Below, one piece after another: positions 19,938-57,344 of a stretch of 64,000 bases of DNA. Below the pieces are notes generated by a model. That model saw nothing but the letters and a program-made list of their open reading frames with translations, searched no databases and was not told the origin of the DNA. Each line of letters starts with the position of its first letter. Position 1 is the stretch's first letter. Source of the DNA: Escherichia coli (GTDB lineage: Bacteria; Pseudomonadota; Gammaproteobacteria; Enterobacterales; Enterobacteriaceae); assembly GCF_044324785.1 (NCBI RefSeq), contig NZ_CP172127.1; one strand, given 5' to 3'. A program made the position numbers and the translations under genes.

Positions 19938-20282
19938 TTAAGAATCAGCCTGACTCGGGATCAGTTTTTGCCAGATAACTGAAACGTATTTTGCCTGGTA
20001 ACGGGCGTCATCAAGTGCATTATGGCGCTCACCTTCGAATGGAATAGCCGTTCTGGCATCGAAGTCTATGGCTTTCCCCAGCTCAACGATTGTGCGTACA
20101 TCGCGATCGTTGTAGTAACGCCACGGGCAGGGGATCCCCTGCCGTTCGTATGAACGGCGCAAAATCGTGTTGTCGAAGTTGGCTCCATTTCCCCAAACCT
20201 GAACAAAAAATTCACCGGAGTTTTCGTCGATAAATTCCCGCAATTGTAACAGTGCATCATCTAACGGGATTTCATCGGTCAT
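19938..20282 (-). CDS. C-terminal part of a split DEDDh 3-5 exonuclease (Exo II and Exo III motifs)
   Basis: WGNGANFD and HNALDDARY motifs; start overlaps the upstream stop as ATGA; the Exo I motif is in the preceding ORF. Confidence 0.7.
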   Translation of the reverse strand: MTDEIPLDDALLQLREFIDENSGEFFVQVWGNGANFDNTILRRSYERQGIPCPWRYYNDRDVRTIVELGKAIDFDARTAIPFEGERHNALDDARYQAKYVSVIWQKLIPSQADS

Positions 20283-22411
20283 AATGGCCGATTGCGCTTC
20301 GCGTGATTGCTCTTAAGCCACCATTTAATGGTGTCCCGATCAATGACTCCGCCAGCAGTTTCCAGATCGATAGTCTTACTAAATTCCGGTCCCATATCTC
20401 CGGTTTGCGGATCGAAAAATATTGCACCTATTGAGATGATCGGGGCATCAGGATTTTTTCCCATGGTTTCAAGGTCGATCATTAGATGGTCACACGTCCT
20501 GCTGGTGGATGTGATTTCGTGATGACCGTTCACCTTAATTGAGTGATCTGCCGTCTCGCCAGTTTCATTATCGCTATCGTGATGCTGATTGCCGCCAGCG
20601 TTCTCCTTGTGTGGATGTTCAGCGCCTTCCATTTCCTCCGGATCATCTTCCTGAACTTCAACCTGATACTCTTCATCGAATGTTTCTTGGTATGTTGCGT
20701 CGCCCATCACCGCGCCACAATCAGGGCAGTTGCCGCCGCCGGTCTGACCGCAAGCGGTGCAGACTTTTTCCACTTCCTGTTGCGCCACTGATTCAGGCTG
20801 TTTCGTTTCTGGCTCGTTTTGTAACGCATTTGGGCTGTTTTGTTCCGCTTTTTGGTAGTTCCGTTCCGATTCATGCTGGTTCTGGTTCACAGAATCGCGG
20901 GTCTGGATCCCCTTAACCCATTTCGGATCATTCGGGTCACTAATCCCTTCAACAAATTCACCACGTGATGCAGCAAGCAACTTATCGGCGTCAGGCTGGC
21001 TGATATTGGCTGCCTGCATAATTTTGTTTACTTCGTCAGCGGTAACTTTTATCGGCTCTGGTTGTTCTGAATCTTCAGCGGTATCTACATTTTGCGGTAA
21101 GCCCGTGTATGTGCCATTTTTTCGGGCAAAATATTCTTCTTTTGTGATTTCAGTGGCGCCAGCAGCCAGTGCCTTATCCAGACCAGAAAGTTTGTTTGCG
21201 CGACCGTATTTTTCTCCGTCCTTATCTGCGAAGAGGAAATAGAACGGCCCCTCACGCTCTACAGATGGTTCAGCTTCCGGTGCGGTTTCATTTTTTGGGA
21301 TATCAGATACCTCAGTTTCCACTGCATCAGTTTGTGTTTCTGATGACTTGAGAACATCAACAGTGCCCAGGTCTGTTTCTTCATTCTCAAACACGCCCTT
21401 TGTCGTCAGGTATTCGCAGATATATTTGTTCAGTGCTACGGGATCTTTGTGAATGTCGATCGGACGCTCACGGACAAGGCCAAAAATAGTTTGGCGGTCG
21501 TAGCGAAGGGCATCAGGCTGTTTGCGTATTGATGCCGAGATACGCTTCCAGTCTTCGCGGTCGTTGTCGATAACTTCATTTTTTGCCCAGCGATGGATGC
21601 TGCCGTCAATGTTTCCGGCATCCACATCACCAGGCCAGAGAGCGTAGGCCAGTTCGTCATCCAGTGTTTTCCATGTCTGCTTGTATTCGCGATGAATGGC
21701 AGCAATGACCGGGCTGATTTTTCCTGTTGAATTTTCAGTGTACTGTTGATTGGCTCTGGCGCGGGCGAGATCAACAACAGACGTGTATTTTCCGGTTTCC
21801 TTGCGTTCACCTTCGCGACGTTTTTTCCAGATGCGCATCTCTGCCTGAATTTCGGGCCATTTAGCACCAGGAATACATTTATGCTTAACCCACCCAATGG
21901 CGTGCAACTTAAGCTCCGGATACATGGCGTTAACTTCTGGCATTTTCATCAACGCTTCAACGATATGTCCGTTGAATGTTGCCATGTCTTCCTGCAACAA
22001 TTCCTGTGCGCTAATAACCATATCAACGGTGATGTTTTCACATGTGTCGAACTTAACCATGACAGCGTTCTGTACTTCAGGGGCCAGCTTGTCAAAAGTG
22101 ACGTTCATCGGATCGGATTCAGTCTCAACCGGGACAAAAGAAGCAGACTCCTCATCCCAGCGGTTTTCCTGCATATATTCAGCATCCCATGAATCGAGGG
22201 CAGGGCGGGGTATACCAGGTTTATCCTCGCAGACAATAAATTTATAAGCGCAGTCCTGAGCAGCCGGATAATGTTCCAGGAATTGCCAGTGAAATTTTGC
22301 TCGAGCACGGCGTTCGTCGCCAGCTTCAATGGCTGTGGCTACAGCCACAGCGCCTTCTTCCCTTGTTGCCAGTTCGTCAGGAATAGCGGCGCAAATAAAG
22401 ACTTTACTCAT
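20279..22411 (-). CDS. prophage exonuclease, N-terminal 710 aa (RecE/exodeoxyribonuclease VIII position) ending in an Exo I motif
   Basis: 710-aa ORF with acidic low-complexity middle, Cys4 zinc-ribbon (CTACGQTGGGNCPDCG) and C-terminal MIDLETMG motif. Confidence 0.7.
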   Translation of the reverse strand: MSKVFICAAIPDELATREEGAVAVATAIEAGDERRARAKFHWQFLEHYPAAQDCAYKFIVCEDKPGIPRPALDSWDAEYMQENRWDEESASFVPVETESDPMNVTFDKLAPEVQNAVMVKFDTCENITVDMVISAQELLQEDMATFNGHIVEALMKMPEVNAMYPELKLHAIGWVKHKCIPGAKWPEIQAEMRIWKKRREGERKETGKYTSVVDLARARANQQYTENSTGKISPVIAAIHREYKQTWKTLDDELAYALWPGDVDAGNIDGSIHRWAKNEVIDNDREDWKRISASIRKQPDALRYDRQTIFGLVRERPIDIHKDPVALNKYICEYLTTKGVFENEETDLGTVDVLKSSETQTDAVETEVSDIPKNETAPEAEPSVEREGPFYFLFADKDGEKYGRANKLSGLDKALAAGATEITKEEYFARKNGTYTGLPQNVDTAEDSEQPEPIKVTADEVNKIMQAANISQPDADKLLAASRGEFVEGISDPNDPKWVKGIQTRDSVNQNQHESERNYQKAEQNSPNALQNEPETKQPESVAQQEVEKVCTACGQTGGGNCPDCGAVMGDATYQETFDEEYQVEVQEDDPEEMEGAEHPHKENAGGNQHHDSDNETGETADHSIKVNGHHEITSTSRTCDHLMIDLETMGKNPDAPIISIGAIFFDPQTGDMGPEFSKTIDLETAGGVIDRDTIKWWLKSNHAKRNRPL

Positions 22412-22534
22412 TTTGTTTTAACCTCATGACAGATTTAAGGATGAACAAATCCCTGCCATTGCTGGCATATAAGAATGAAACCGGATATTTATTACGGAAC
22501 TGTTTTAAAGACCTGCCGGGATTTCGATATTATC

Positions 22535-22705
22535 CTAGTGAATAACTTTATCGACCGGGTAACAGTTACCGGGAATTTTCTGTTCGGTTGCTGCAGTCAT
22601 ACACTCCTGCATTGTCCTGTGAACACTGACTGCAATATCAACTGGCACTCCGGAAACAAGAAAAACTGTCAGAACAAGCGCAAATGCTGAATTCATTGTG
22701 CACAT
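22535..22705 (-). CDS. ydfD: small secreted/membrane protein at the YdfD (Qin lysis-protein) position
   Basis: Signal-like MNSAFALVLTVFLVSG directly downstream of dicB; start choice uncertain. Confidence 0.55.
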   Translation of the reverse strand: MCTMNSAFALVLTVFLVSGVPVDIAVSVHRTMQECMTAATEQKIPGNCYPVDKVIH

Positions 22706-22881
22706 CCTTTTGGCATCAGACGTAAACGAGCCAGCATTGAAACAATGCATATTTTATTTAATAGCTCCCGTTCTTGTTTTCTCTTGTTAATGGCATCTTC
22801 AGTAAATACAGGGTTACTGATAGTGACACCAATTTCAAAACAACCTTCAGACGTATTAACGTTTGGTAATAACGTTTTCAT
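22693..22881 (-). CDS. dicB: cell division inhibitor DicB
   Basis: 62 aa MKTLLPNVNTSEGCFEIGVTISNPVF... matches recalled DicB; internal start of the 97-aa ORF. Confidence 0.9.
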   Translation of the reverse strand: MKTLLPNVNTSEGCFEIGVTISNPVFTEDAINKRKQERELLNKICIVSMLARLRLMPKGCAQ

Positions 22882-23055
22882 TATCGCGCCCTCAACAATG
22901 AGTTTTGTGATGCGGTGCCTGGTGCCTCCAGGTGACGTTAACCAGTTAACAATTAACGCCGGATACAGAGAATCCACCCATAACACTGTTTTTGGTTTTA
23001 ACTGTTCCGCGTGCGCTCAGCCGCATTCACCACATCACAAAATTCACTTTAAAAA

Positions 23056-23108
23056 GGGCGGCAGAGCAGTCACGGAGTAAAACTGATACCGCCAAACGTC
23101 ACCAGAAA
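23056..23108 (-). ncRNA. dicF: DicF small regulatory RNA
   Basis: Minus strand reads TTTCTGGTGACGTTTGGCGGTATCAGTTTTACTCCGTGACTGCTCTGCCGCCC followed by a T-run, matching recalled DicF; lies between ydfC and dicB as in K-12. Confidence 0.85.
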
Positions 23109-23448
23109 ATTGATAACAGAGGGCGTTGCAGCGGGGTTGTCACTTAAGCGTATGGTCAACCTGACAACCCGGTGTCCTCAACGGGGAAGGAATAACCCCG
23201 CCATACTTACCGCCGCGCCATTTCGCGGGTTGCCACAACCGGAAGCGCACGGTCGACGAAAATTTAACGACAGGCTATCTATGAACCAGCTACCTCGCCG
23301 TGCGCTTTCGCGTTATGGTCTGACTTTTCAGGGAAATATCCTTTCAGTAAACTGTCAGTGCCGGATGCTCACCCGTGTCCGGCGCACGCACTCCACCTCA
23401 CCCGTGGAGAACTCCTTAATTACCAACCTTAGCTTCGTTGGTTAGCTA

Positions 23449-23667
23449 TTAACGCGGGTATGTAATCATTCTGGCAATGCTTAATGCCGCTGCTTTTTCC
23501 AGATTGGTGATATCCTGCTCCAGAGAGAACAGATTTTCAGCCTGCTTAGCCCTGGCTTCATTAGCCCATTTCAGATCCTGCGCTGCATTAATTTTCTGGT
23601 GCATCCACTCATAAAGTTCATCATCGGTATAGTCTGGCGCGATGATAACGGGTTCTCGTTTCTGCAT
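23449..23667 (-). CDS. ydfC: Qin-type protein YdfC
   Basis: 72-aa ORF in the conserved dicB operon position. Confidence 0.8.
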   Translation of the reverse strand: MQKREPVIIAPDYTDDELYEWMHQKINAAQDLKWANEARAKQAENLFSLEQDITNLEKAAALSIARMITYPR

Positions 23668-23696
23668 ACTGATTCCTTGCGGTGCTGTTTCGCTTA

Positions 23697-23825
23697 TCAG
23701 CCGTTAGATTTTGCCGAACTGGAAAGCGCCTGTTTAAATTCGCTGAAGCTGAGAGCTTCTTCGCCTTCGGCAAGGCCTTCGAAGTATTCTTCGTAAGCCT
23801 TTTCCATGATTGTGTCGAAATCCAT
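23697..23825 (-). CDS. ydfB: Qin-type small protein YdfB
   Basis: Manual translation MDFDTIMEKAYEEYFEGLAEGEEALSFSEFKQALSSSAKSNG, 42 aa, below the ORF-track length cutoff. Confidence 0.75.
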   Translation of the reverse strand: MDFDTIMEKAYEEYFEGLAEGEEALSFSEFKQALSSSAKSNG

Positions 23826-23826
23826 A

Positions 23827-23982
23827 TCACCCACCTGAATTTCTTTCCAGCCAGCGACGCGCTCCAGATTCGGTTTTAAACGTTTTGCTTTTGGTATACG
23901 TCATTGCGGTGAACGTGCCGTCCTGGTTTGGAAACACGCCGTACACCAGAGATTCGTTGTTGCCAAGATCGATAGTATCCAT
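23827..23982 (-). CDS. ydfA: Qin-type small protein YdfA
   Basis: 51 aa from MDTIDLGNNESLVYGVF, first gene of the dicB operon. Confidence 0.8.
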   Translation of the reverse strand: MDTIDLGNNESLVYGVFPNQDGTFTAMTYTKSKTFKTESGARRWLERNSGG

Positions 23983-24095
23983 GCTGACCTCATTTCCCCT
24001 TAACGCCGGGGTAGCGGAACTGTTTGCTGAGAACACCGTGCGGTGTCTTGATGGAAAATAATTTAGAATAACCTAACATGAGAGGCAAGTGTTTT

Positions 24096-24113
24096 TGTTA
24101 GATTGATCTAACA
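24096..24113. promoter_or_regulatory. 18-bp palindromic operator (TGTTAGA-N4-TCTAACA) in the dicB-operon promoter region
   Basis: Perfect palindrome tgttagattgatctaaca between dicA and ydfA; same half-sites as the site at 24607-24624. Confidence 0.5.
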
Positions 24114-24149
24114 AAAAGGGTGGGCGCAACTAATCACTTGAAAAGAATG

Positions 24150-24557
24150 TTATTTTATTGATTTATTTTTACGCGCTTTAAGCATTTCTTCGAAGAGTTT
24201 GTTGAAGTTTTCTACTCTTGCGCGCATTTCAGACAGCAAGGCTTCCTGCTCGGAAGATGGAAGAGCATCGAATAATTCGATCAATTCTTTGTGGTTGGGA
24301 GTTAGCTCTGTTTCCACATGAAGTTCTTGTGCAGGCACTGGTGCCTTGTCTTCGTCACCAAACATTAGCCATGTAGGTGAGCACTTCAGAGCATCCGCTA
24401 AAGCAAACAATCGTTTTCCGACTGGCTGGGTTTCGTCTCTTTCCCATTGTGAAATTGTGACGTGAGCAACTCCAGCGAGGCGCGCGGCTTCTCGTTGTGT
24501 TAAGCGTAATTCTTTTCGTCGCGCCAGAACTCGCTGGCCCAGGGTTCTTGTATCCAT
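24150..24557 (-). CDS. dicA: Cro/C1-type HTH repressor, DicA-like
   Basis: 135 aa with N-terminal HTH (LRLTQREAARLAGVAHVTISQWE); divergent from dicC. Confidence 0.8.
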   Translation of the reverse strand: MDTRTLGQRVLARRKELRLTQREAARLAGVAHVTISQWERDETQPVGKRLFALADALKCSPTWLMFGDEDKAPVPAQELHVETELTPNHKELIELFDALPSSEQEALLSEMRARVENFNKLFEEMLKARKNKSIK

Positions 24558-24606
24558 AGTTAGGTAATTCTAATTTTTCTTGACTTAGGTATCCCGCGCA
24601 CAATAA

Positions 24607-24624
24607 TGTTAGAAAAGTCTAACA
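24607..24624. promoter_or_regulatory. 18-bp palindromic operator in the dicA-dicC divergent promoter region
   Basis: tgttagaaaagtctaaca just upstream of the dicC start, with a TTGACT -35-like hexamer at 24580-24585. Confidence 0.5.
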
Positions 24625-24634
24625 AGAGGGGGAT

Positions 24635-24865
24635 TTGATGCTTAAAGTTGACGCAATTACTTTTTTTGGCAGCAAAACAAAGCTTGCCAATGCCGCAGGA
24701 GTGAGGCTGGCAAGTGTTGCTGCTTGGGGGATACTGGTTCCTGAAGGTCGCGCGATGCGTCTACAGGAGGCATCTGGCGGGGAGCTTCAGTATGATCCCA
24801 AAGTTTATGATGAATATCGTAAGACGAAGCGGGCGGGGCGGTTGAACAATGAAAATCACTCCTGA
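24635..24865 (+). CDS. dicC: Cro-like regulator DicC
   Basis: 76 aa; C-terminal RAMRLQEASGGELQYDPKVYDEYRKTKRAG matches recalled DicC. Confidence 0.8.
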   Translation: MMLKVDAITFFGSKTKLANAAGVRLASVAAWGILVPEGRAMRLQEASGGELQYDPKVYDEYRKTKRAGRLNNENHS

Positions 24866-25370
24866 ACAGGCTCGTGAGGCTCTGGATGCCTGGATATGTC
24901 GACCAGGAATGACACAGGAGCAGGCGACGATATTAATCACTGAAGCATTCTGGGCTTTGAAAGAGCGCCCGAACATCGATGTTCAGCGTGTCACAGATGA
25001 AGGTGGCGCGGTTGATCAGCGAGCGCTTGGTGTTAATCGAGTGAAGATATTCGAACGCTGGAAGGCTATCGACACCAGGGATAAGCGTGAAAAGTTCACG
25101 GCGCTAGTGCCTGCGATTATGGAGGCTATCCGGATTAGTGATTTCAGGTTGTATCGTGAAATTACTGACGGAAAAAGCATCACGTGCATGATCGCCGGGT
25201 TAAACAAAGAATATGGCGATGTGGTGGAGTCCGGACTGCTTTTTGCTGATCCTGCCGTAGTGGATCGTGAAACTGACGAACTTATAGAAAAAGCAATTGC
25301 TTTCAAGCTTGCGTATCGACAGCAATACCAACAAAAAGCTGGATGGAATTATGAGCCTTCTTTTTGCTGA
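24849..25370 (+). CDS. hypothetical phage early protein (cII/YdaT position)
   Basis: 173-aa ORF overlapping the dicC stop; function not recognisable from sequence. Confidence 0.45.
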   Translation: MKITPEQAREALDAWICRPGMTQEQATILITEAFWALKERPNIDVQRVTDEGGAVDQRALGVNRVKIFERWKAIDTRDKREKFTALVPAIMEAIRISDFRLYREITDGKSITCMIAGLNKEYGDVVESGLLFADPAVVDRETDELIEKAIAFKLAYRQQYQQKAGWNYEPSFC

Positions 25371-26356: not shown

Positions 26357-26779
26357 GTGGCAAAAGTTTTTACACAAGAAGAGCGGGAAAAAATTAAATG
26401 GCAGGTGGTGGAACTCGTGCGCCAGAGCGGCCGTGAGACGTTACGGCAACTGGAAGCTAAAACAGGTGCGACTAGATATCTGATGAGCGTTCTTGCCAGA
26501 GAGCTGGTAGCCAGTGGCGATGTATACAACTCCGGCTACGGGTTATTCCCCTCTGAACAGGCGCGTAAGGACTGGCAAAACGCCCGCAAAAAACTCTCGA
26601 GGGCAAAGGTGAAGAAACCTGCTGTGGTTGATCCGGACCTTATCTGGTCATCACCTGACGGAGAAATACGTCGCTACGACAGTCGCCTAAACATAATCTG
26701 TCGCGAGTGCCGGAAGAGCGAAGTTATGCAGCGCATACTGGCTTTCTATCAGGGTAATTTTCAGGACGTGGCGCAGTGA
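26357..26779 (+). CDS. hypothetical phage protein
   Basis: 140-aa ORF with good coding character, no recognisable motif. Confidence 0.45.
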   Translation: MAKVFTQEEREKIKWQVVELVRQSGRETLRQLEAKTGATRYLMSVLARELVASGDVYNSGYGLFPSEQARKDWQNARKKLSRAKVKKPAVVDPDLIWSSPDGEIRRYDSRLNIICRECRKSEVMQRILAFYQGNFQDVAQ

Positions 26780-27210
26780 GTGCACCGGCAACCATTCTTG
26801 ATATGTGCTGTGGCAGCCGCATGTTCTGGTTCGATAAGTCTGACGAACGGGCGATATTTAGCGATATCAGAAAAGAAGGATACACATTACGCAATGGGAG
26901 ACGCTTGATTATCAGCCCTGACATTATCGCAGATTTTCGTGCATTATCATTTGCAGACGCATCTTTTTCGATGGTTGTATTAGACCCTCCGCATCTTGAG
27001 CGTGTTGGTGATAACGCCTGGATGGGAAAGAAATATGGACGGCTGAATAAAGATGCCTGGCGTGATGATTTGCGACAGAGATTTAAAGAAGCTTTTCGGG
27101 TGTTGAGGCCGCACGGCGTTCTGATTTTTTAATGGAATGAAACGCAAATACCGGTAAGCCAGATTCTGGCACTGACAGATAGAAAGCCTGTTATCTGTCA
27201 ACGAACAGGG
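26776..27210 (+). pseudogene. truncated phage DNA methyltransferase (amino-MTase with DPPH motif)
   Basis: VLDPPHL catalytic motif; stop inside a T-run at 27130-27132, similarity continues about 26 codons in-frame after it. Confidence 0.6.
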
Positions 27211-28464: not shown

Positions 28465-29755
28465 ATACAGCGAACTCCATTGGTTTAGTTGGATATTTAC
28501 TGTGCTGGACAAAAACGGTTTGCGGGGAAATCTTAGTTAAGTAGAATGACTGCGGGTGCTTGAGGCTATCTGCCTCGGGCACGAACACCAACGGCAGGTA
28601 GAGAAAAGCCCCAGTTAACATTACGCGTCCTGCAAGACGCTTAACATTAATCTGAGGCCAATTTCATGCCAGACACATGTAGGTTAGCCTCTTACGTGCC
28701 GAAAGGCAAGGAGAAGCAGGCTATTGTTAACACCAAGCTGTAATGTCCCCTTTGAACCATTCTAAAATGTCCCCAGACAATTCTCTGGGGGATTTTTCAT
28801 GACCAAAGAAACTGTTACGATGAGTCATAAGGAACTCCACCGACTTCAGATTATTCAGGAGTCAATTAATCGACATATTACTCAGGAACAAGCTGCGGCA
28901 CGCATTGGCATTTCTATTCGGCAGGTTAAACGTCTGGTGCAACGGTATAGAAATGAAGGGCCTTCTGGTCTGGTTTCCCACCGACGTGGAAAGCGTCCTA
29001 ATAATTCCTTTTCTACTGAATTCAGAGCAACAGTAATTTTACTCCTCAAAGGCCGTTACGCTGATTTTGGACCTACGTTTGCGTGCGAAAAATTGCGCGA
29101 GATACACGGTTTATCTTTATCCGTTGAAACTCTCAGAAAGTGGATGATAGAAGAGGGGGGTATGGCGTGAACGCCGTCGTAAAATTGCCCGTATATATCA
29201 ACGCCGCATGCGACGACCATCTTACGGTGAACTGATCCAGATTGATGGCTCACCTCATGACTGGTTTGAAAATCGAGGCCCCAGATGTACACTGATCGTT
29301 TTCATTGATGATGCCACCAGTGCGTTGATGGCGTTGCGTTTTGTGCCTGCTGAAACAACCCGGGCTTACATGGAAACCCTCCGGGGTTACCTTAATGATC
29401 ATGGCGTACCGCTCGCTCTCTACTCTGATAGACACAGTATATTCAGGGTAAATAACCCAGAGCGGGAAGGTGAGCTGACCCAGTTCACTCGTGCGATAAA
29501 GACACTGGGCATCGAGCCAATCCATGCCAACAGCCCGCAGGCAAAAGGGCGGGTAGAGCGCGCCAATCAGACACTACAGGACAGGCTGGTCAAAGAAATG
29601 CGGCTTCAGAATATCAGTGATATTGAAACAGCAAATGCATGGTTGCCGACCTTTATTGAAGCCTATAACAACCGGTTCGCTACGTCGCCTCGTACTACTG
29701 ATAATGCTCATCTTGATGTGCACCATTCTGAAGAGGAACTGGGTTATATCTTCAG

Positions 29756-29764
29756 CCTACAGGC
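29756..29764. repeat. 9-bp target site duplication (CCTACAGGC), left copy
   Basis: Identical 9-mer immediately flanks both ends of the IS. Confidence 0.8.
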
Positions 29765-30821
29765 GGCTTTGTTGAATAAATCAGATTTCGGGTAAGTCTC
29801 CCCCGTAGCGGGTTGTGTTTTCAGGCAATACGCACGCTTTCAGGCATACCTGCTTTCGTCATTTTGTTCAGCGCTCGTACCAGGGCCATAGCCTCCGCAA
29901 CCTGACCATCGTAGTCACGCAGCGTCAGTGAACCCCCGAACAGCTGTTTTACCCGGTACATCGCCGTTTCCGCTATCGAGCGACGGTTGTAATCTGTTGT
30001 CCATTTCCACCGCGCATTACTCCCGGTCATTCGCTGATTAGCCACTGCACGGTTACGGTCTGCATATTCACCGGGCCAGTAACCCGCACCTTTTCGGGGA
30101 GGGATAAGCGCGCTGATTTTCTTACGCCGCAGTTCATCGTGACATAGCCGGGTATCGTAAGCGCCATCGGCGGCGGCTGACCTGATTTTCCGGTGGGTTT
30201 GCCGGATTAACCCGGGGAAGGCCTCTGAGTCCGTAACGTTGTTCAGCGACAGGTCAGCGCAGATGATTTCATGTGTTTTACTGTCAACGGCGAGATGCAG
30301 CTTACGCCAGATACGGCGGCGTTCCTGGCCATGCTTTTTGACTTTCCACTCGCCTTCACCGAAGACCTTCAGCCCGGTGGAATCAATTACCAGGTGTGCG
30401 ATTTCACCCCGGGTGGGCGTTTTGAAACTGACATTAACCGACTTTGCCCGCCTGCTGACACAGCTGTAATCCGGGCAGCGTAGCGGAACGTTCATCAGAG
30501 AAAAAATGGAATCAATAAAGCCCTGCGCAGCCCGCAGGGTCAGCCTGAATACGCGTTTAATGACCAGCACAGTAGTGATGGCAAGGTCAGAATAGCGCTG
30601 AGGTCTGCCTCGTGAAGAAGGTGTTGCTGACTCATACCAGGCCTGAATAGCTTCATCATCCAGCCAGAAAGTTATGGAGCCACGGTTGATGAGGGCTTTA
30701 TTGTAGGTGGGCCAGTTGGTGATTTTGAACTTTTGCTTTGCCACGGAACGGTCTGCGTTGTCGGGAAGATACGTGATCTGATCCTTCAACTCAGCAAAAG
30801 TTCGATTTATTCAACAAAGCC
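29765..30821 (-). mobile_element. IS903-group insertion sequence (IS5 family), 1057 bp
   Basis: Perfect 18-bp terminal inverted repeats GGCTTTGTTGAATAAATC, 1057-bp length and 9-bp duplication typical of IS903/IS102. Confidence 0.9.
29821..30744 (-). CDS. IS903-type DDE transposase
   Basis: ORF inside the IS with DDE residues and YREK-like signature; probable GTG start giving 307 aa. Confidence 0.85.
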   Translation of the reverse strand: MAKQKFKITNWPTYNKALINRGSITFWLDDEAIQAWYESATPSSRGRPQRYSDLAITTVLVIKRVFRLTLRAAQGFIDSIFSLMNVPLRCPDYSCVSRRAKSVNVSFKTPTRGEIAHLVIDSTGLKVFGEGEWKVKKHGQERRRIWRKLHLAVDSKTHEIICADLSLNNVTDSEAFPGLIRQTHRKIRSAAADGAYDTRLCHDELRRKKISALIPPRKGAGYWPGEYADRNRAVANQRMTGSNARWKWTTDYNRRSIAETAMYRVKQLFGGSLTLRDYDGQVAEAMALVRALNKMTKAGMPESVRIA

Positions 30822-30830
30822 CCTACAGGC
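30822..30830. repeat. 9-bp target site duplication (CCTACAGGC), right copy
   Basis: Direct repeat of 29756-29764. Confidence 0.8.
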
Positions 30831-31642
30831 GAAGCGCGTTCTGTCTAAAAATCTCACTTTCCAGTACAAAAGCAGTGCGTTTCAGGTACGCAGTGAGGGC
30901 CGGGGATATCGACTTAGGCATTCGGTTGTTACTGTATGCGAGAACTTTGACGGTGAAATTAACGTTCTGTATGACGGGAAAGCGCTGGGCTGGGAAAAGT
31001 ATGTTGATGGCCCGGAGCCTATACCACTGGATGATGAAAAGAGTGTCCATGAACGAGTGGATAATGCCCGTATTGATTTACGCTCAAAATACTATGTTAA
31101 ACCTAAAGCTGACCATCCCTGGCTTACGCGCCGAACGCAAAGTCATCAGCAAGTTAAGCCCCCGAAGTTACCTAAAAAGAAGCCTGATCCCGATAAAAAA
31201 GATTGAAACCAAGATCGATTCGGTTGAGTGCATATCCATTCATAGGGTAGATTCTTAAGTCGCGTTTCTGGTGTTCATTTTCGGGTGGTTTGTTACTTGT
31301 TTTACCGGGGATATGCCAGAAACGCGCTGAGTCAGTCTGGGCGGTGCGCGTAATGAGGCGTTATGGTAAATAGCCTATGCTAATGTCCGCTAAGAGCAAG
31401 AAGCGGAAGTTGGCAGTTTTGTGGACTGTCCCCACAAATGTGACTACAGAAATAGTTGCAATTCATAATTGATCATGGGTTGTCAGTTAAACTCGTGGCG
31501 ATTTAAATAGACTAATTGGGAGTGCGTCCATTACTTATATCTTGTAATGTTAACTATCAGAAATGATACAAAGATAATATGTCTTTAAAGAAAAGGCTGA
31601 TGGCGAAAAGTGGCCCGATGAGGGCCACAATACGGCTGTCAC

Positions 31643-33105: not shown

Positions 33106-33261
33106 ATGAAGCAGCAAAAGGCGATGTTAATCGCCCTGATCGTCATCTGTTTAACCGTCATAGTGACGGCACTGGTAACGAGGAAAGACCTCTGCGAGGT
33201 ACGAATCCGAACCGGCCAGACGGAGGTCGCTGTCTTCACAGCTTACGAACCTGAGGAGTAA
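33106..33261 (+). CDS. hokD: Hok-family membrane toxin HokD (RelF)
   Basis: Manual translation MKQQKAMLIALIVICLTVIVTALVTRKDLCEVRIRTGQTEVAVFTAYEPEE, 51 aa, below the ORF-track cutoff. Confidence 0.85.
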   Translation: MKQQKAMLIALIVICLTVIVTALVTRKDLCEVRIRTGQTEVAVFTAYEPEE

Positions 33262-33477: not shown

Positions 33478-33729
33478 ATGATGAACATCGAAGAACTGCG
33501 TAAAATTTTTTGTGAAGATGGCCTCTATGCTGTGTGCGTTGAAAATGGAAATCTTGTTAGTCATTACCGCATTATGTGTTTGCGAAAGAATGGGGCTGCG
33601 TTAATTAATTTTGTGGATGCTCGGGTCACGGACGGATTTATCTTGCGCGAAGGTGAGTTTGTCACTTCATTACAGGCATTGAAAGAGATCGGAATAAAAG
33701 CTGGCTTTTCTGCTTTTTCAGGAGAATAA
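33478..33729 (+). CDS. rem: Rem protein (function unknown)
   Basis: 83-aa ORF after relBE-hokD as in Qin. Confidence 0.7.
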   Translation: MMNIEELRKIFCEDGLYAVCVENGNLVSHYRIMCLRKNGAALINFVDARVTDGFILREGEFVTSLQALKEIGIKAGFSAFSGE

Positions 33730-36525: not shown

Positions 36526-36825
36526 AAAAATTCCTTAATACTGATAACTTGGCGCACTATACACACGTTCCTGAAGAAAGCTATAGTTTTTTGATGGGGT
36601 TGAAGATGGCTGGATGTCTAAAATAAACATTGCTTCATATGTTCAACTATGCGTTAATGATTGCGTCGGTTTGAAGAACAGACGATATACGAAGTAGTTT
36701 ACTAAAGCAGTTCTCATTTCAGGTGTTATTCACTTATTCCTTCTTTGAGTCTCTCCAATTAAGTACGAAGTCGTTTCTGTTATGCAAACCATTTATGCCG
36801 AAAGGCTCAAGTTAAGGAATGTAGA

Positions 36826-37041
36826 ATGTCAAATAAAATGACTGGTTTAGTAAAATGGTTTAACGCTGATAAAGGTTTCGGCTTTATTTCTCCTGTTGAT
36901 GGTAGTAAAGATGTGTTTGTGCATTTTTCTGCGATTCAGAATGATAATTATCGAACCTTATTTGAAGGTCAAAAGGTTACCTTCTCTATAGAGAGTGGTG
37001 CTAAAGGTCCTGCAGCAGCAAATGTCATCATTACTGATTAA
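36826..37041 (+). CDS. cspB: cold-shock protein CspB
   Basis: 71 aa [23 protein letters not shown] with RNP motifs. Confidence 0.9.
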
Positions 37042-37322
37042 AATTCATCGCTCGTCTGTATACGATAACGAAGAAGGCTGATGCCTGAGTAGAGATACGG
37101 ACAGAGTAGTGAATATTGGATCTCTTTAATAAAAAGTAAGGAGGTCCAATACATGAAACAATGGCTAGCATATTTGGCAAAATCTTAATCAGGAAAAGTA
37201 TGCTAACCATTGTGGTGAAGTGCAGGTTTGCTGCATGAATAGTTTTACAGCAGAAGCTAACTGCTGGCATGGCAAAACAAAGTGCGTAAGTGGATGACTC
37301 CCACAAAAAGCACCACAATCTC

Positions 37323-39350: not shown

Positions 39351-39713
39351 GGTAATATTAAATCGGAACATTTACATCGCGGAATGTAAAATTTAAATAA
39401 AAAGGACTCTTCCATGAGCCAAAATTCCTGAAATCTTAAGGGTAAGATAAAAGGTCTTAATCAGAATGACACGTTATTATTAATAAATAAAGCTATTCTT
39501 TCATTGCTGTGTTTTTCTTTACAAAAGTAATCCTTGCTATGGGTGGTTAATCATGCGTTAATGGTGTTCTGGTTTGTTACAAATTTATCTGAAGCAGTCA
39601 TTGTTATAATTTTATTATTTGTACCTCTTGAGATTTCCTTGTTGGTTTTTCTCTCTGATATTTTTTTTCGGACCATTCTGCCCAAGGGCTAATTTCTTCA
39701 AAAGGTAATAATT

Positions 39714-39926
39714 ATGTCTAACAAAATGACTGGTTTAGTGAAATGGTTTAACCCTGAAAAAGGTTTTGGTTTCATCACGCCGAAAGATGGCAGCAAAGAT
39801 GTGTTTGTCCATTTCTCAGCAATTCAGAGCAACGATTTCAAAACATTAACTGAGAATCAGGAAGTTGAATTTGGTATTGAGAACGGACCTAAAGGTCCTG
39901 CCGCTGTTCATGTAGTGGCGCTTTGA
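39714..39926 (+). CDS. cspI: cold-shock protein CspI
   Basis: 70 aa [23 protein letters not shown]. Confidence 0.9.
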
Positions 39927-40133
39927 GGTAGACAATATTACAAACCATATTCACTTTAGATGCCCGTGTTGTCATGGTTCCCAGTATAGAACATCATCTT
40001 TTGATGTTTCTGACATGAATCCTTTCGGGGCAAAATGTATCTTTTGTAAATCAATGATGATTACATTTGATAATATTTCACAATACTTAAATGCCAGCCG
40101 TCTGTCGTTGGATTTAAAAAAGTGAAAATGAAG

Positions 40134-42534: not shown

Positions 42535-42560
<26 letters not shown>
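42015..42560 (+). CDS. nohA: terminase small subunit (lambda Nu1 homolog)
   Basis: 181 aa MEVNKKQLADIFGASIRTIQNWQEQGMPVLRGGGKGNEVLYD, matches recalled lambda Nu1. Confidence 0.9.
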
Positions 42561-46241
<3,681 letters not shown>

Positions 46242-46261
<20 letters not shown>

Positions 46262-47561
46262 TCTCCCGCATATTGCCAGCATGGCTTTTAATGAGCCGCT
46301 GATGCTTGAACCCGCCTATGCGCGGGTTTTCTTTTGTGCGCTTGCAGGCCAGCTTGGGATCAGCCGCCTGACGGATGCGGTGTCCGGCGACAGCCTGACT
46401 GCCCAGGAGGCACTCGCGACGCTGGCATTATCCGGTGATGATGACGGACCACGACAGGCCCGCAGTTATCAGGTCATGAACGGCATCGCCGTGCTGCCGG
46501 TGTCCGGCACGCTGGTCAGCCGGACGCGGGCGCTGCAGCCGTACTCGGGGATGACCGGTTACAACGGCATTATCGCCCGTCTGCAACAGGCTGCCAGCGA
46601 TCCGATGGTGGACGGCATTCTGCTCGATATGGACACGCCCGGCGGGATGGTGGCGGGGGCATTTGACTGCGCTGACATCATCGCCCGTGTGCGTGACATA
46701 AAGCCGGTATGGGCGCTGGCCAATGACATGAACTGCAGCGCAGGTCAGCTGCTTGCCAGTGCCGCCTCCCGGCGTCTGGTCACGCAGACCGCCCGGACAG
46801 GCTCCATCGGCGTCATGATGGCTCACAGTAATTACGGCGCTGCACTGGAGAAACAGGGCGTGGAAATCACGCTGATTTACAGCGGCAGCCATAAGGTGGA
46901 TGGCAATCCCTACAGCCATCTTCCGGATGACGTCCGGGAGACACTGCAGTCCCGGATGGACGCAACCCGCCAGATGTTTGCGCAGAAGGTGTCGGCATAT
47001 ACCGGCCTGTCTGTGCAGGCTGTGCTGGATACCGAGGCTGCAGTGTACAGCGGTCAGGAGGCCATTGATGCCGGACTGGCTGATGAACTTGTCAACAGCA
47101 CCGATGCGATCACCGTTATGCGTGATGCACTGGATGCACGTAAATCCCGTCTCTCAGGAGGGCGAATGACCAAAGAGACTCAATCAACAACTGTTTCAGC
47201 CACTGCTTCGCAGGCTGACGTTACTGACGTGGTGCCAGCGACGGAGGGCGAAAACGCCAGCGCGGCGCAGCCGGACGTGAACGCGCAGATCACCGCTGCG
47301 GTTGCGGCAGAAAACAGCCGCATTATGGGGATCCTCAACTGTGAGGAGGCTCACGGACGCGAAGAACAGGCCCGCGTGCTGGCAGAAACCCCCGGTATGA
47401 CCGTGGAAACGGCCCGCCGCATTCTGGCAGCTGCACCACAGAGTGCACAGGCGCGCAGTGACACTGCGCTGGATCGTCTGATGCAGGGGGCACCGGCACC
47501 GCTGGCTGCAGGTAACCCGGCATCTGATGCCGTTAACGATTTGCTGAACACACCAGTGTAA
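46242..47561 (+). CDS. C: head maturation protease/scaffold gpC with in-frame nested Nu3
   Basis: GTG start after GGAGGAG ribosome-binding site, 439 aa (VTAELRNLPHIASMAF...). Confidence 0.9.
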
Positions 47562-47570
47562 GGGATGTTT

Positions 47571-47903
47571 ATGACGAGCAAAGAAACCTTTACCCATTAC
47601 CAGCCGCTGGGCAACAGTGACCCGGCTCATACCGCAACCGCGCCCGGCGGATTGAGTGCGAAAGCGCCTGCAATGACCCCGCTGATGCTGGACACCTCCA
47701 CCCGTAAGCTGGTTGCGTGGGATGGCACCACCGACGGTACTGCCGTTGGCATTCTGGCGGTTGATGCTGACCAGACCAGCACCACGCTGACGTTCTACAA
47801 GTCCGGCACGTTCCGTTATGAGGATGTGCTCTGGCCGGAGGCTGCCAGCGACGAGACGAAAAAACGGACCGCGTTTGCCGGAACGGCAATCAGCATCGTT
47901 TAA
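47571..47903 (+). CDS. D: head decoration protein gpD
   Basis: 110 aa from [12 protein letters not shown]. Confidence 0.9.
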
Positions 47904-47958
47904 CTTTACCCTTCATCACTAAAGGCCGCCTGTGCGGCTTTTTTTACGGGATTTTTTT

Positions 47959-48984
47959 ATGTCGATGTACACAACCGCCCAGCTGCTGGCGGCAAATGAG
48001 CAGAAATTTAAGTTTGATCCGCTGTTTCTGCGTCTCTTTTTCCGTGAGAGCTATCCCTTCACTACGGAGAAAGTCTATCTCTCACAAATTCCGGGACTGG
48101 TAAACATGGCGCTGTACGTTTCGCCGATTGTTTCCGGTGAGGTTATCCGTTCCCGTGGCGGCTCCACCTCTGAATTTACGCCGGGATATGTCAAACCCAA
48201 GCATGAAGTGAATCCGCAGATGACCCTGCGTCGCCTGCCGGATGAAGATCCGCAGAATCTGGCGGACCCGGCTTACCGCCGCCGTCGCATCATCCTGCAG
48301 AACATGCGTGACGAAGAGCTGGCCATTGCTCAGGTCGAAGAGATGCAGGCAGTTTCTGCCGTGCTCAAGGGCAAATACACCATGACCGGTGAAGCCTTCG
48401 ATCCGGTTGAGGTGGATATGGGCCGCAGTGCGGCGAACAACATCACGCAGTCCGGCGGCACGGAGTGGAGCAAGCGTGACAAGTCCACGTATGACCCGAC
48501 CGACGATATCGAAGCCTACGCGCTGAACGCCAGCGGCGTGGTGAATATCATCGTGTTTGATCCGAAAGGCTGGGCGCTGTTCCGTTCCTTCAAAGCCGTC
48601 AAGGAGAAGCTGGATACCCGTCGCGGCTCTCATTCCGAGCTGGAGACAGCGGTAAAAGACCTGGGCAAAGCGGTGTCCTATAAGGGAATGTATGGCGATG
48701 TGGCCATCGTCGTGTATTCCGGACAGTACGTGGAAAACGGCGTCAAAAAGAACTTCCTGCCGGACAACACGATGGTGCTGGGTAACACTCATGCACGCGG
48801 TCTGCGCACCTATGGCTGTATTCAGGATGCGGATGCATTGAGTGAGGGTATTAATGCGTCTCCCCGTTATCCGAAAAACTGGAAGACATCCGGCGATCCG
48901 GCGCGAGAGTTCACCATGATTCAGTCAGCACCGCTGATGCTGCTGGCTGATCCTGATGAGTTCGTGTCCGTTCAACTGGCGTAA
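47959..48984 (+). CDS. E: major capsid protein gpE
   Basis: 341 aa from MSMYTTAQLLAANEQKF. Confidence 0.95.
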   Translation: MSMYTTAQLLAANEQKFKFDPLFLRLFFRESYPFTTEKVYLSQIPGLVNMALYVSPIVSGEVIRSRGGSTSEFTPGYVKPKHEVNPQMTLRRLPDEDPQNLADPAYRRRRIILQNMRDEELAIAQVEEMQAVSAVLKGKYTMTGEAFDPVEVDMGRSAANNITQSGGTEWSKRDKSTYDPTDDIEAYALNASGVVNIIVFDPKGWALFRSFKAVKEKLDTRRGSHSELETAVKDLGKAVSYKGMYGDVAIVVYSGQYVENGVKKNFLPDNTMVLGNTHARGLRTYGCIQDADALSEGINASPRYPKNWKTSGDPAREFTMIQSAPLMLLADPDEFVSVQLA

Positions 48985-49025
48985 TCATGGCCCTTCGGGG
49001 CCATTGTTTCTCTGTGGAGGAGTCC

Positions 49026-49421
49026 ATGACGAAAGATGAACTGATTGCCCGTCTCCGCTCGCTGGGTGAACAACTGAACCGTGATATCAGCCTGACGGGG
49101 ACGAAAGAAGAACTGGCGCTCCGTGTGGCAGAGCTGGAAGAAGAGCTTGATGACACGGGCGACACTGCCGGTCAGGATACCCCTCTCAGCCCGGAAAATG
49201 TGCTGACCGGACATGAAAATGAGGTTGTATCAGCGCAGCCGGATACCGTGACTGATACGGCTGATCTGGTCACGGTTGTGGCACTGGTGACGCTGCATAC
49301 TGATGCACTTCACGCCACGCGGGATGAGGCTGTGGCATTTGTGCTGCCGGGAACGGCGTTCCGTGTCTCTGCCGGTGTGGCAGCTGAAATGACAGAGCGC
49401 GGCCTGGCCAGAATGCAATAA
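49026..49421 (+). CDS. FI: DNA packaging protein gpFI
   Basis: Starts MTKDELIARLRSLGEQLN. Confidence 0.85.
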   Translation: MTKDELIARLRSLGEQLNRDISLTGTKEELALRVAELEEELDDTGDTAGQDTPLSPENVLTGHENEVVSAQPDTVTDTADLVTVVALVTLHTDALHATRDEAVAFVLPGTAFRVSAGVAAEMTERGLARMQ

Positions 49422-49432
49422 CGGGAGGCGCT

Positions 49433-49786
49433 GTGGCTGATTTCGATAACCTGTTCGATGCTGCCATTGCCTGCGCCGATGAAACGATACGCGGGTACAT
49501 GGGAACGTCAGCCACCATGACATCCGGTGAGCAGTCCGGTGCTGTGATACGTGGTGTTTTTGATGACCCTGAAAATATCAGCTATGCCGGACAGGGCGTG
49601 CGCGTTGAAGGCTCCAGCCCGTCCCTGTTTGTCCGGACTGATGATGTGCGGCAGCTGCGGCGCGGCGACACGCTGACCATCGGTGAGGAAAACTTCTGGA
49701 TAGACCGGATTTCGCCGGATGATGGCGGAAGCTGTCATCTCTGGCTTGGGCGGGGCGTACCGCCTGCCGTTAACCGTCGCCGCTGA
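49433..49786 (+). CDS. FII: head-tail connector gpFII
   Basis: 117 aa from MADFDNLFDAAIA. Confidence 0.9.
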   Translation: MADFDNLFDAAIACADETIRGYMGTSATMTSGEQSGAVIRGVFDDPENISYAGQGVRVEGSSPSLFVRTDDVRQLRRGDTLTIGEENFWIDRISPDDGGSCHLWLGRGVPPAVNRRR

Positions 49787-49797
49787 AAGGGGGATGT

Positions 49798-50376
49798 ATG
49801 GCCATAAAAGGTCTTGAGCAGGCCGTTGAAAACCTCAGCCGTATCAGCAGAACGGCGGTGCCCGGTGCCGCCGCAATGGCCATTAACCGCGTTGCTTCAT
49901 CCGCGATATCGCAGTCGGTGGCACAGGTTGCCCGTGAGACAAAGGTACGCCGGAAACTGGTAAAGGAAAGGGCCAGGCTGAAAAGGGCCACGGTCAAAAA
50001 TCCGCAGGCCAGAATCAGGGTTAACCGGGGGGATTTGCCCGTAATCAAGCTGGGTAACGCGCGGGTTGTCCTTTCCCGCCGCAGACGTCGTAAAAAGGGG
50101 CAGCGTTCATCCCTGAAAGGTGGCGGCAGCGTGCTTGTGGTGGGAAACCGTCGTATTCCCGGCGCGTTTATTCAGCAACTGAAAAATGGCCGGTGGCATG
50201 TCATGCAGCGTGTGGCCGGGAAAAACCGTTACCCCATTGATGTGGTGAAAATCCCGATGGCGGTGCCGCTGACCACGGCGTTTAAACAGAATATTGAACG
50301 GATACGGCGTGAACGTCTTCCGAAAGAGCTGGGCTATGCGCTGCAGCATCAACTGAGAATGGTAATAAAGCGATGA
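49798..50376 (+). CDS. Z: tail completion protein gpZ
   Basis: 192-aa ORF in lambda order. Confidence 0.9.
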   Translation: MAIKGLEQAVENLSRISRTAVPGAAAMAINRVASSAISQSVAQVARETKVRRKLVKERARLKRATVKNPQARIRVNRGDLPVIKLGNARVVLSRRRRRKKGQRSSLKGGGSVLVVGNRRIPGAFIQQLKNGRWHVMQRVAGKNRYPIDVVKIPMAVPLTTAFKQNIERIRRERLPKELGYALQHQLRMVIKR

Positions 50377-50768
50377 AACATACTGAACTCCGTGCAGCCG
50401 TACTGGATGCACTGGAGAAGCATGACACCGGGGCGACGCTTTTTGATGGTCGCCCCGCTGTTTTTGATGAGGCGGATTTTCCGGCAGTTGCCGTTTATCT
50501 CACCGGCGCTGAATACACGGGCGAAGAGCTGGACAGCGATACCTGGCAGGCGGAGCTGCATATCGAAGTTTTCCTGCCTGCTCAGGTGCCGGATTCAGAG
50601 CTGGATGCGTGGATGGAGTCCCGGATTTATCCGGTGATGAGCGATATCCCGGCACTGTCAGATTTGATCACCAGTATGGTGGCCAGTGGCTATGACTACC
50701 GGCGCGACGATGATGCGGGCCTGTGGAGTTCAGCCGATCTGACTTATGTCATTACCTATGAAATGTGA
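50373..50768 (+). CDS. U: tail terminator gpU
   Basis: 131-aa ORF in lambda order. Confidence 0.9.
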
Positions 50769-50775
50769 GGACGAT

Positions 50776-51516: not shown

Positions 51517-51531
51517 TCCGGAGAGTCAGCG

Positions 51532-55966: not shown

Positions 55967-55971
55967 ATCCC

Positions 55972-57284: not shown

Positions 57285-57344
57285 TGCAAAATGTTTTATG
57301 TGAAACCGCCTGCGGGCGGTTTTGTCGTTTATGGAGCGTGAGGA

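Follow-up and report, generated by a model that had tools for sequence, protein, structure and literature searches.

Gene Content of the Locus

The minus strand of the window, the 64-kb stretch of Escherichia coli DNA analyzed here, carries ydfA, ydfB, ydfC, dicF, dicB, and ydfD downstream of a dicA-type repressor gene, and a dicC-like gene is transcribed divergently from the repressor gene, as in K-12. The K-12 order that had been predicted for the operon is borne out by the coordinates and by alignment with K-12, and its genes are 97–100% identical to those of the K-12 Qin prophage (pairwise alignment with NC_000913).

22535–22696, minus strand: ydfD, nonsense-truncated (Q54*) as judged from the K-12 alignment
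22693–22881, minus strand: dicB, 62 residues, 62/62 identical to K-12 (NCBIfam NF049927)
23056–23108, minus strand: dicF small RNA, 53 nt including the 3′ hairpin (Rfam RF00039, 76.7 bits)
23449–23667, minus strand: ydfC, 69/72 residues identical to K-12
23697–23825, minus strand: ydfB, 42/42 residues identical to K-12
23827–23982, minus strand: ydfA, 49/51 residues identical to K-12
24150–24557, minus strand: DicA-family repressor gene, 135 residues (NCBIfam NF007257, Pfam HTH_3)
24638–24865, plus strand: dicC-like gene, Cro analogue, 75 residues (NCBIfam NF007282)
33478–33729, plus strand: rem, the DicA antirepressor gene in K-12, 83/83 residues identical to K-12

The dicB product matches NF049927 with 132.8 bits (cutoff 100). 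The predicted DicF RNA and its terminator are likewise recovered: dicF is a full-model match to RF00039 (76.7 bits; gathering score 48), is 100% identical to K-12 dicF, and has a 3′ hairpin followed by UUUUU at 23051–23055. The loop of this hairpin is beyond the limit of the terminator scan, which did not call the terminator, and the Rfam match and the fold were therefore used instead; the fold z-score of −1.39 is not significant alone. From approximately the +1 position of the dicB promoter (dicBp) to dicB, the sequence is 97–100% identical to K-12, with 99–100% identity in the RNA-processing region, and transcription from dicBp followed by RNase III/RNase E processing to the 53-nt DicF would be expected as in K-12 (PMC10448788).

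The operon is not fully intact, contrary to the original prediction, and the coordinates that had been assigned to it, 22693–24624, leave most of ydfD outside. The ydfD start codon overlaps the dicB stop codon as ATGA, and codon 54 is TAG here versus CAG in K-12, resulting in a product of 53 instead of 63 residues; the 66-mer containing this TAG is matched exactly in 10 of the 3,433 matching records. Loss of one, two, or five C-terminal residues abolishes the lysis activity of YdfD (PMC8835842), and the YdfD lysis protein of this copy is probably inactive through Q54*. Downstream of the operon, the exonuclease gene has a 2-bp insertion that strain WAT lacks and that shifts its reading frame.

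The repressor matches the NF007257 model, “transcriptional repressor DicA”, over residues 1–134 of 135 with 224.7 bits (cutoff 101), although its PGAP label reads only “helix-turn-helix domain-containing protein”. Pfam places an HTH_3 domain at residues 12–64 (E = 2.9e-14) and no peptidase family in the protein. An Ala-Gly dipeptide is present inside the helix-turn-helix (HTH), without a catalytic domain. The divergent gene product matches the DicC model NF007282 with 165.8 bits (cutoff 130).

The prophage that contains these genes adjoins rspB, as K-12 Qin does, and is far less decayed than K-12 Qin. The virion genes that had been predicted for it are present at about 42015–62981, where lambda-like genes encode terminase, portal, major capsid, tail tube, tape measure, and J-type tip proteins (PHROGs, E values from 1e-125 to 0). 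The early-right region contains IS elements and pseudogenes.

Promoters and Candidate Operators

The motif TGTTAGANNNNTCTAACA has exactly the two perfect matches that had been predicted, at 24096–24113 and 24607–24624, and no further site within two mismatches was found in the whole 64 kb. Shuffled sequences average 0.14 matches even when two mismatches are allowed, and two matches occurred in 1 of 100 shuffles; a pair of perfect palindromes far exceeds what chance would give. The palindromes were considered as terminators and rejected, there being no U-run after the hairpin on either strand. The promoters and operator-like sites of the region are the following.

24060–24088, minus strand: putative dicB-operon promoter (dicBp), placed by homology to the K-12 position
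24061–24078, unstranded: core dicBp operator-like site, TGTTAGG-TTAT-TCTAAAT, conserved in allele L078
24096–24113, unstranded: candidate distal dicBp operator from the motif scan, perfect palindrome TGTTAGA-TCAA-TCTAACA
24558–24575, unstranded: weak operator-like site directly next to the dicA start codon; equivalents in all four DicA allele classes
24580–24607, plus strand: predicted dicC promoter, TTGACT, 16-nt spacer, AATAAT (consensus scan, 10/12)
24607–24624, unstranded: Oc homologue by alignment with K-12 Oc, perfect palindrome TGTTAGA-AAAG-TCTAACA

The 24607–24624 palindrome is homologous by position to K-12 Oc (TTGTTAGTCATAACTAACAA), which is bound by DicA in vivo (PMC3441716). It overlaps the −10 element and start region of the predicted dicC promoter, whose location coincides with that given for K-12 dicC in the same study. 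The 24096–24113 palindrome, which extends to 11-bp arms over 24092–24117, sits just upstream of the dicBp −35 element, and allele-specific equivalents are found at the same position in the K12, NEK, and L035 classes. The dicBp hexamers were assigned by eye in K-12 (TTGACC, 17-nt spacer, TAATCT) and then at the same position in the other alleles, giving TTGCCT (24083–24088) and TAAATT (24060–24065) with a 17-nt spacer in the window. The sigma-70 consensus scan called the dicC promoter and did not call dicBp (8/12 matches), so dicBp is placed by homology only; its −35 element is weaker here than the TTGACC of the other alleles.

Two less perfect sites accompany the palindromes. The site at 24061–24078 occupies the dicBp spacer and −10 element and has allele-specific equivalents at the same position in the other three classes, whereas the site at 24558–24575 reads AATTAGA-ATTA-CCTAACT on the minus strand. 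Judged by this comparison, the operator-like sites probably number four; the original prediction of two operators stands for both perfect sites but not for the total. A third operator was also sought in the segment that separates the dicA stop codon from the distal dicBp palindrome, but only a lone TTAG half-site was seen. Even for K-12, experiments have yet to locate the DicA site at dicBp (PMC7567609), and the allele comparison places two candidate repressor sites at this promoter. Since K-12 DicA does not bind in vivo to Om and Oa, the two non-Oc sites of the dicA promoter region (PMC3441716), the weak sites of the window may be nonfunctional or DicC-specific. In K-12, DicC ChIP-seq identified two sites flanking dicA, with the motif TT(A/C/T)G...C(G/A/T)AA.

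A Swapped Immunity Cassette

Pairwise alignment with K-12 Qin reveals a block of divergence that spans the repressor gene.

24054–24742, unstranded: swapped immunity cassette, ~690 bp (pairwise alignment with NC_000913)

Identity to K-12 Qin is 50–66% per 100 alignment columns through most of the cassette and 76–78% in the blocks that straddle its ends, with flanks of 97–100%. The cassette contains the dicB promoter and operators, dicA, the dicA/dicC promoter region, and the DNA-binding N terminus of DicC; its boundaries fall at about the dicBp transcription start on one side and inside dicC on the other. The first ~35 codons of dicC are diverged from K-12 and the remainder is identical, such that DicC is identical to K-12 DicC at 65/76 positions with every difference in residues 1–33. 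The repressor is identical to K-12 DicA at 75/137 positions (55%); identity is 51% for the N-terminal half, which contains the HTH, and 58% for the C-terminal half. Divergence had been ascribed to the C-terminal half; it runs instead along the whole protein and, as the alignment indicates, is part of the exchange of an entire immunity cassette rather than a C-terminal event.

Comparison with L078, an allele of the same class, shows 27 synonymous differences in dicA versus 1 nonsynonymous difference, a ratio indicating that the window repressor is under strong purifying selection. Both dicBp sites are unchanged within the class while the neighboring spacer and the flank adjoining the 24096–24113 palindrome diverge. 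Across all four allele classes, including the window repressor, the C-terminal blocks CSPTW.FGDEDK and ALP.SEQ...E.RARV.NFN.LF are invariant.

Each of the four DicA allele classes has its own half-site (TGTTAGA, TGTTAG(T/C), TATTGAG, or CCTTAGA), repeated at the same four positions. In a matrix of half-site mismatches, the diagonal values are 0–3 and those between classes are 4–6, except for the K-12/window pair (2–4). The recognition helix ..HV(T/S)(I/V)SQWE.. occurs with TTAG-type sites and ..GSSISLWE.. with TTGAG. The operator half-site thus changes together with the recognition helix at four conserved positions, which supports reading these sites as operators. This covariation and the positional homology to K-12 Oc support the prediction that one operator belongs to the dicB promoter and another lies between dicA and dicC.

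It is highly improbable that the palindromes instead arose by chance, serve as hairpins, terminators, or other structural elements, or bind a host factor. The distal dicBp palindrome, 36 nt past the stop codon of dicA, does have the potential to fold into an 11-bp hairpin, and DicA targets are reported to come under the host regulator YjdC when DicA is missing. These points are outweighed by the chance expectation of 0.14 and the missing U-run, by the correspondence of the palindromes to K-12 sites, one of them DicA-bound, and by half-sites that covary with the repressor allele at both locations.

Distribution and Specificity of the Repressor Allele

Of 5,426 complete E. coli genomes, 565 contain the window repressor allele, each of them only once, and 516 genomes conserve the repressor at 99% or more; a 2.5-kb dicB-operon query, by contrast, is matched in some part up to 10 times per genome. 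The repressor and operators of the window are a different but common, uncharacterized allele of a known system. In isolated phage genomes, the best match to the exact repressor allele is 94% identical and comes from a partial 8-kb record, and complete phage genomes such as PhiR42_1 carry other DicA-family alleles in the cI position.

Whether the exchanged cassette also confers an immunity separate from that of K-12 DicA, with altered specificity and no cross-repression of operators, is a close question to which we give slightly less than an even chance. The repressors are only 55% identical, the specificity module (operators, repressor, and DicC HTH) has been exchanged as a whole, and all three of the strongest window half-sites have A at position 7, where K-12 has T or C. 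The two alleles nevertheless agree in the six outer bases of the half-site (TGTTAG), position 7 varies among the K-12 sites themselves, the recognition helices are predicted to contact bases through the same residues (H-V-S/T-x-S-Q), and the K-12 half-site pattern fits the window operators with only 2/14 mismatches. Both alleles are found together in 23 genomes, which would favor separate immunity, but this co-occurrence is about fourfold below the ~89 genomes expected under independence, a deficit confounded by the attachment site that both alleles mostly share.

It is also conceivable, but unlikely, that the module is a decaying relic whose repressor, promoter, or toxic genes no longer function in this strain. 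The ydfD nonsense codon, the exonuclease frameshift, the IS elements and pseudogenes of the early-right region, and the weaker dicBp −35 element are all in keeping with decay. Against it, dicB and dicF are 100% identical to functional K-12 genes with a nearly invariant (99–100%) RNA-processing region, the operators are perfect palindromes, and the full-length repressor is both under purifying selection (27 synonymous to 1 nonsynonymous) and highly conserved in the 516 genomes noted above. The “poised and repressor-controlled” state originally ascribed to the module is what homology would lead one to expect.

The Rem Antirepressor

Rem acts as the antirepressor of DicA in K-12 (PMC10448788), and rem is present on the same prophage as the window repressor. 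The rem region including flanks is identical to K-12 at 851/851 nucleotides. Relative to strain WAT, the window carries an extra IS5-like insertion that shifts rem. Among identified repressors, those of the DicA family account for 34/35 in Rem-anchored loci versus 27/65 in ydfA-anchored loci (Fisher p = 6e-9), and the Rem-anchored DicA-family repressors span all four allele classes, linking rem to each of them. Because of this association, and because a Rem identical to that of K-12 lies beside a repressor of 55% identity, we tentatively suggest, with rather more doubt than conviction, that Rem could be an allele-independent antirepressor that docks on the invariant C-terminal half or the linker of DicA-family proteins and not on the variable DNA-binding half. 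If true, a single rem gene could relieve repression of dicB operons on several prophages of one cell even where their DicA alleles differ.

Proposed Mechanism and Relation to Known Systems

The dicBF operon, DicF, and DicA/DicC with their operators are textbook features of K-12, and published work already describes their conservation among Qin-like and other lambdoid prophages from many E. coli strains. The locus is an ordinary instance of this known Qin-prophage cell-division-inhibitor operon under a DicA/DicC repressor switch, and the significance of the finding beyond annotation is small. The core of the original prediction, in which a DicA-type repressor controls a dicB/DicF operon and the surrounding prophage retains virion genes, holds with partial support. 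We consider it very probable that the region constitutes the immunity switch and early-left (PL-like) operon of a Qin-type lambdoid prophage with a DicA/DicC-operator mechanism.

By analogy with K-12, the 135-residue DicA-family repressor, as the CI analogue, and the divergent DicC, as the Cro analogue, would act on a common set of palindromic operators built around the core TGTTAG-N6-CTAACA. Of the two strong sites, one would cover the −10 element and start of the dicC promoter and the other would lie just upstream of the dicB promoter −35 element, with a weaker site in the dicB promoter spacer and −10 element and a fourth, weak site abutting the dicA start codon. Bound DicA would keep both dicC and the ydfABC-dicF-dicB-ydfD transcript off, and the operon would be transcribed when repression is lifted. 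In K-12, the routes to derepression are the Rem antirepressor, a spontaneous flip of the bistable DicA/DicC switch, and urea or heat; derepression by Rem may occur here as well.

With K-12 Qin, whose dicBF operon reads ydfABC-dicF-dicB-ydfDE, the window prophage shares its site next to rspB, its gene order and orientation, the operator positions and TGTTAG core, identical dicF, dicB, and rem, and 94–100% protein identity in ydfA, ydfB, ydfC, and the 3′ part of dicC. It differs in the replaced ~690-bp cassette, and hence in the repressor, the DicC N terminus, both promoters, and the inner bases of the operators; the two strong operators of the window are perfectly palindromic, unlike the imperfect K-12 dicBp site. 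In addition, ydfD is truncated, and the window prophage keeps the integrase, excisionase, replication, and lysis genes and an apparently full lambda-like virion module, which K-12 Qin has lost. With the Gifsy-type repressors of the GfoR/GfoA class (PMC10448788), the window repressor has in common a short HTH architecture without an autocleavage domain and a small antirepressor gene on the same prophage, here rem, the link to the Gifsy repressors being taken from that literature. The arrangement also resembles lambda and P22 immunity in its divergent repressor and Cro genes, in operators that overlap PR-like and PL-like promoters, in a PL-like operon directed toward exonuclease, xis, and int, and in immunity cassettes that can be exchanged between conserved flanks. 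Unlike in lambda and P22, the repressor of the window has no S24 peptidase domain, the operator motif is a different one, and the early-left operon carries dicF and dicB.

The dicB operon

The minus strand carries the operon, with the gene for the DicA-like repressor (the CI analogue) beyond its promoter and that for DicC (the Cro analogue) divergent from it. Identities are to the K-12 proteins unless stated.

24638–24865, plus strand (opposite to the operon): dicC-like gene
24150–24557, minus strand: DicA-like repressor gene, 75 of 137 aligned columns identical
23827–23982, minus strand: ydfA, 49/51 identical
23697–23825, minus strand: ydfB, 42/42 identical
23449–23667, minus strand: ydfC, 69/72 identical
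23056–23108, minus strand: dicF, 53 nt by K-12 alignment, 100% identical to K-12
22693–22881, minus strand: dicB, 62/62 identical
22535–22696, minus strand: ydfD, 60/63 identical with the stop included, truncated at codon 54

The claimed presence of DicF is borne out by this identity and by an Rfam match covering the full model (23056–23107, minus strand; 76.7 bits, gathering score 48); on folding, UUUUU directly follows the 3′ hairpin. DicB matches NCBIfam NF049927 (132.8 bits, cutoff 100). The DicF match, the operon genes, and two perfect palindromes in the control region therefore establish that the observation behind the original prediction is real.

The operon had also been called intact, which holds for dicF and dicB but not for ydfD, where a TAG replaces the CAG of K-12 and shortens the product from 63 to 53 aa, nor for the exonuclease gene downstream, which is frameshifted relative to the near-identical E. 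coli strain WAT by a 2-bp CT insertion at 20310–20311. Since deletion of one, two, or five C-terminal residues already abolishes YdfD lysis (PMC8835842), the YdfD encoded here is probably inactive. The TAG-bearing exact ydfD 66-mer is rare (10 of 3,433 matching records). The exonuclease gene, counterpart of the K-12 ydfE remnant, reads as ORFs of 710 and 114 aa (19938–22411, minus strand) versus a single 823-aa CDS in WAT.

A replaced immunity cassette

The repressor matches NCBIfam NF007257, “transcriptional repressor DicA” (224.7 bits, cutoff 101), and the dicC product NF007282 (165.8 bits, cutoff 130). The repressor had been described as diverged from K-12 DicA in its C-terminal half; instead, divergence spans the whole length, with 51% identity in the N-terminal helix-turn-helix half and 58% in the C-terminal half. 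Relative to Qin, the K-12 prophage with the reference dicB operon, alignment gives 97–100% identity leftwards from about 24053, across the operon into the exonuclease gene, and again rightwards from 24743, where the 3′ part of dicC lies. The interval in between is 50–66% identical per 100 alignment columns for most of its length and 76–78% in the blocks straddling its ends. These ~690 bp contain the dicB promoter and operators, dicA, the dicA/dicC promoter region, and the first ~35 dicC codons, which encode the DNA-binding part of DicC; the left junction falls roughly where transcription from the dicB promoter (dicBp) is predicted to start. The structure is a cassette swap, the classic mosaicism of lambdoid immunity regions.

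Predicted operators and promoters

The pattern TGTTAGANNNNTCTAACA has exactly two matches in the 64 kb, both perfect, at 24096–24113 and 24607–24624, as originally claimed; shuffled sequence averages 0.14 matches, and no further site occurs in the 64 kb at up to two mismatches. The 24607–24624 palindrome aligns with the K-12 operator Oc, TTGTTAGTCATAACTAACAA, which DicA binds in vivo and which a single A-to-C change inactivates (PMC3441716), and it overlaps the −10 (AATAAT, 24602–24607) of a good dicC promoter found by consensus scan. At the distal dicBp palindrome the symmetry continues, giving arms of 11 bp (TTTTTGTTAGA / TCTAACAAAAA; 24092–24117).

Among 80 viral contigs anchored on ydfA, the 135-aa DicA family falls into four classes, each with its own half-site.

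DicA classes, their half-sites, and the repressors at Rem-anchored loci
Class; half-site; Rem-anchored loci
NEK; TATTGAG; 16
Window; TGTTAGA; 10
K-12; TGTTAG(T/C); 6
L035; CCTTAGA; 2
Non-DicA type; –; 1

In all four classes the half-site recurs at four common positions, two near dicC/dicA (one over the −10 of the dicC promoter, the other directly next to the start codon of dicA) and two at dicBp (just upstream of the −35 and in the spacer/−10). Half-sites differ at 0–3 of 14 positions within a class and at 4–6 between classes, except for the K-12 and window classes, which differ at only 2–4. The recognition helix covaries with the half-site, VAHVTISQWE or ISHVSVSQWE accompanying TTAG-type sites and VSGSSISLWE accompanying TTGAG. 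In L078, a window-class allele, both dicBp sites are unchanged and the adjacent non-coding sequence has diverged; its repressor gene differs from ours by 27 synonymous versus one non-synonymous change. Because of the Oc alignment, the class-specific half-sites, the helix covariation, and the L078 conservation, we accept the palindromes as predicted operators. Two weaker candidate sites lie at 24061–24078 and 24558–24575, and the literature describes three operator-like sequences per control region. As K-12 DicA left the two non-Oc sites in its dicA promoter region unbound in vivo (PMC3441716), the role of the weaker sites may be confined to DicC or to cooperative binding.

With hexamers set by eye in K-12 (TTGACC-17-TAATCT) and the other alleles, dicBp is predicted by position at TTGCCT (24083–24088) and TAAATT (24060–24065), separated by 17 nt; the other alleles have a stronger −35, and a consensus promoter scan made no call for dicBp in the window. 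The A-tract immediately upstream of the −35, kept in all four classes, could act as an UP-element-like sequence.

Association of Rem with the DicA family

Rem is the antirepressor of DicA in K-12 (PMC10448788). The rem gene (33478–33729) is 100% identical to K-12 across 851 nt, whereas the repressor is only 55% identical. When Rem-anchored contigs were fetched and their repressors classified, 34 of the 35 identified belonged to the DicA family, versus 27 of 65 at ydfA-anchored loci (Fisher p = 6e-9). Rem thus accompanies the family whatever the DNA-binding allele, which suggests that it would target the invariant part of DicA (CSPTW.FGDEDK, ALP.SEQ...RARV.NFN.LF).

Prophage context

The region 22400–24900 is 100% identical to WAT, from which the window is nonetheless distinct (98.96% identity over 27 kb, plus one extra ~1-kb insertion). 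The WAT prophage adjoins rspB (PGAP annotation), as Qin does, and is annotated with integrase, excisionase, exonuclease, CII-like and O-like replication genes, relBE, hokD, rem, Q, lysis genes, and terminase/portal genes. Retention of virion genes, also predicted, is confirmed by PHROGs matches to terminase, portal, major head, major tail, tape measure, and J proteins (42535–60842). Despite this module the prophage is partly decayed, since WAT annotates the early-right SAM-dependent methyltransferase and two small genes (26776–27132 and following) as frameshifted or internally stopped pseudogenes.

Nested insertion sequences occupy 28799–31206. Transposase fragments at 28799–29795 and 30733–31206 (IS1202-like/ISEsa1 family per PGAP in WAT) are interrupted by a 322-aa transposase ORF (29821–30789, minus strand), which we take to be IS5-like and which lies on the ~1-kb insertion absent from WAT. 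Just upstream of the IS-derived HTH ORF starting at 28799 is a strong Rfam sok/hok-leader match (RF01794, 28554–28725, plus strand, 99.8 bits), which WAT leaves unannotated and which no intact hok ORF follows; this is probably a hok/sok locus that the IS has cut, and it is distinct from the hokD beside relBE in WAT (window ~33106–33261 by offset). Two Rfam cspA-thermoregulator matches on the plus strand (36665–37057, 158.8 bits; 39568–39953, 112.8 bits) correspond, by WAT-annotation offset, to the 5′ regions of cspB and cspI, cold-shock genes of the prophage.

Prevalence and relation to known systems

The dicB-operon query (22400–24900) matches 4,763 genomes at up to 10 places each, whereas the window repressor allele, found in 565 of 5,426 complete E. 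coli genomes (516 copies at least 99% identical), is always single-copy, a pattern consistent with immunity exclusion but confounded by attachment-site occupancy. Genomes with the K-12 allele number 851; both alleles co-occur in 23 versus ~89 expected if independent, which is no arbiter of shared immunity because both use one attachment site.

In ydfA-anchored viral contigs the ydfA-dicB operon lies downstream of many repressor types. Loci L003–L082 of this set (ydfA at ~3501) join at least 10 to it, including 139-, 158-, and 136-aa types and 212–240-aa ones that are LexA/CI-like by appearance; about 10 loci carry a RelE/ParE-like toxin gene between the immunity region and ydfA, and conserved sequence always restarts at ...CATCAA(G/C)ACACCGCACGG, roughly where transcription from dicBp would start.

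No complete phage record yielded the exact window allele; the best match, from a partial record, is 94% identical. Complete phage genomes do carry the dicB operon with a DicA-family repressor in the cI position, as in PhiR42_1, where cI matches K-12 DicA at 100% identity. The operon is known to be conserved in lambdoid prophages, Qin-like ones included (PMC5069750), and DicA has been published as a short repressor uncleavable by RecA (PMC10448788), a description that the repressor fits, with HTH_3 (residues 12–64) as its only Pfam domain and no peptidase domain by Pfam search. The original prediction thus correctly identified a known system, bar two factual slips. Our comparative map of the operators and the association of Rem with the family add modestly to it, and in the instance studied here the DicA immunity cassette is of an allele that is common but uncharacterised.
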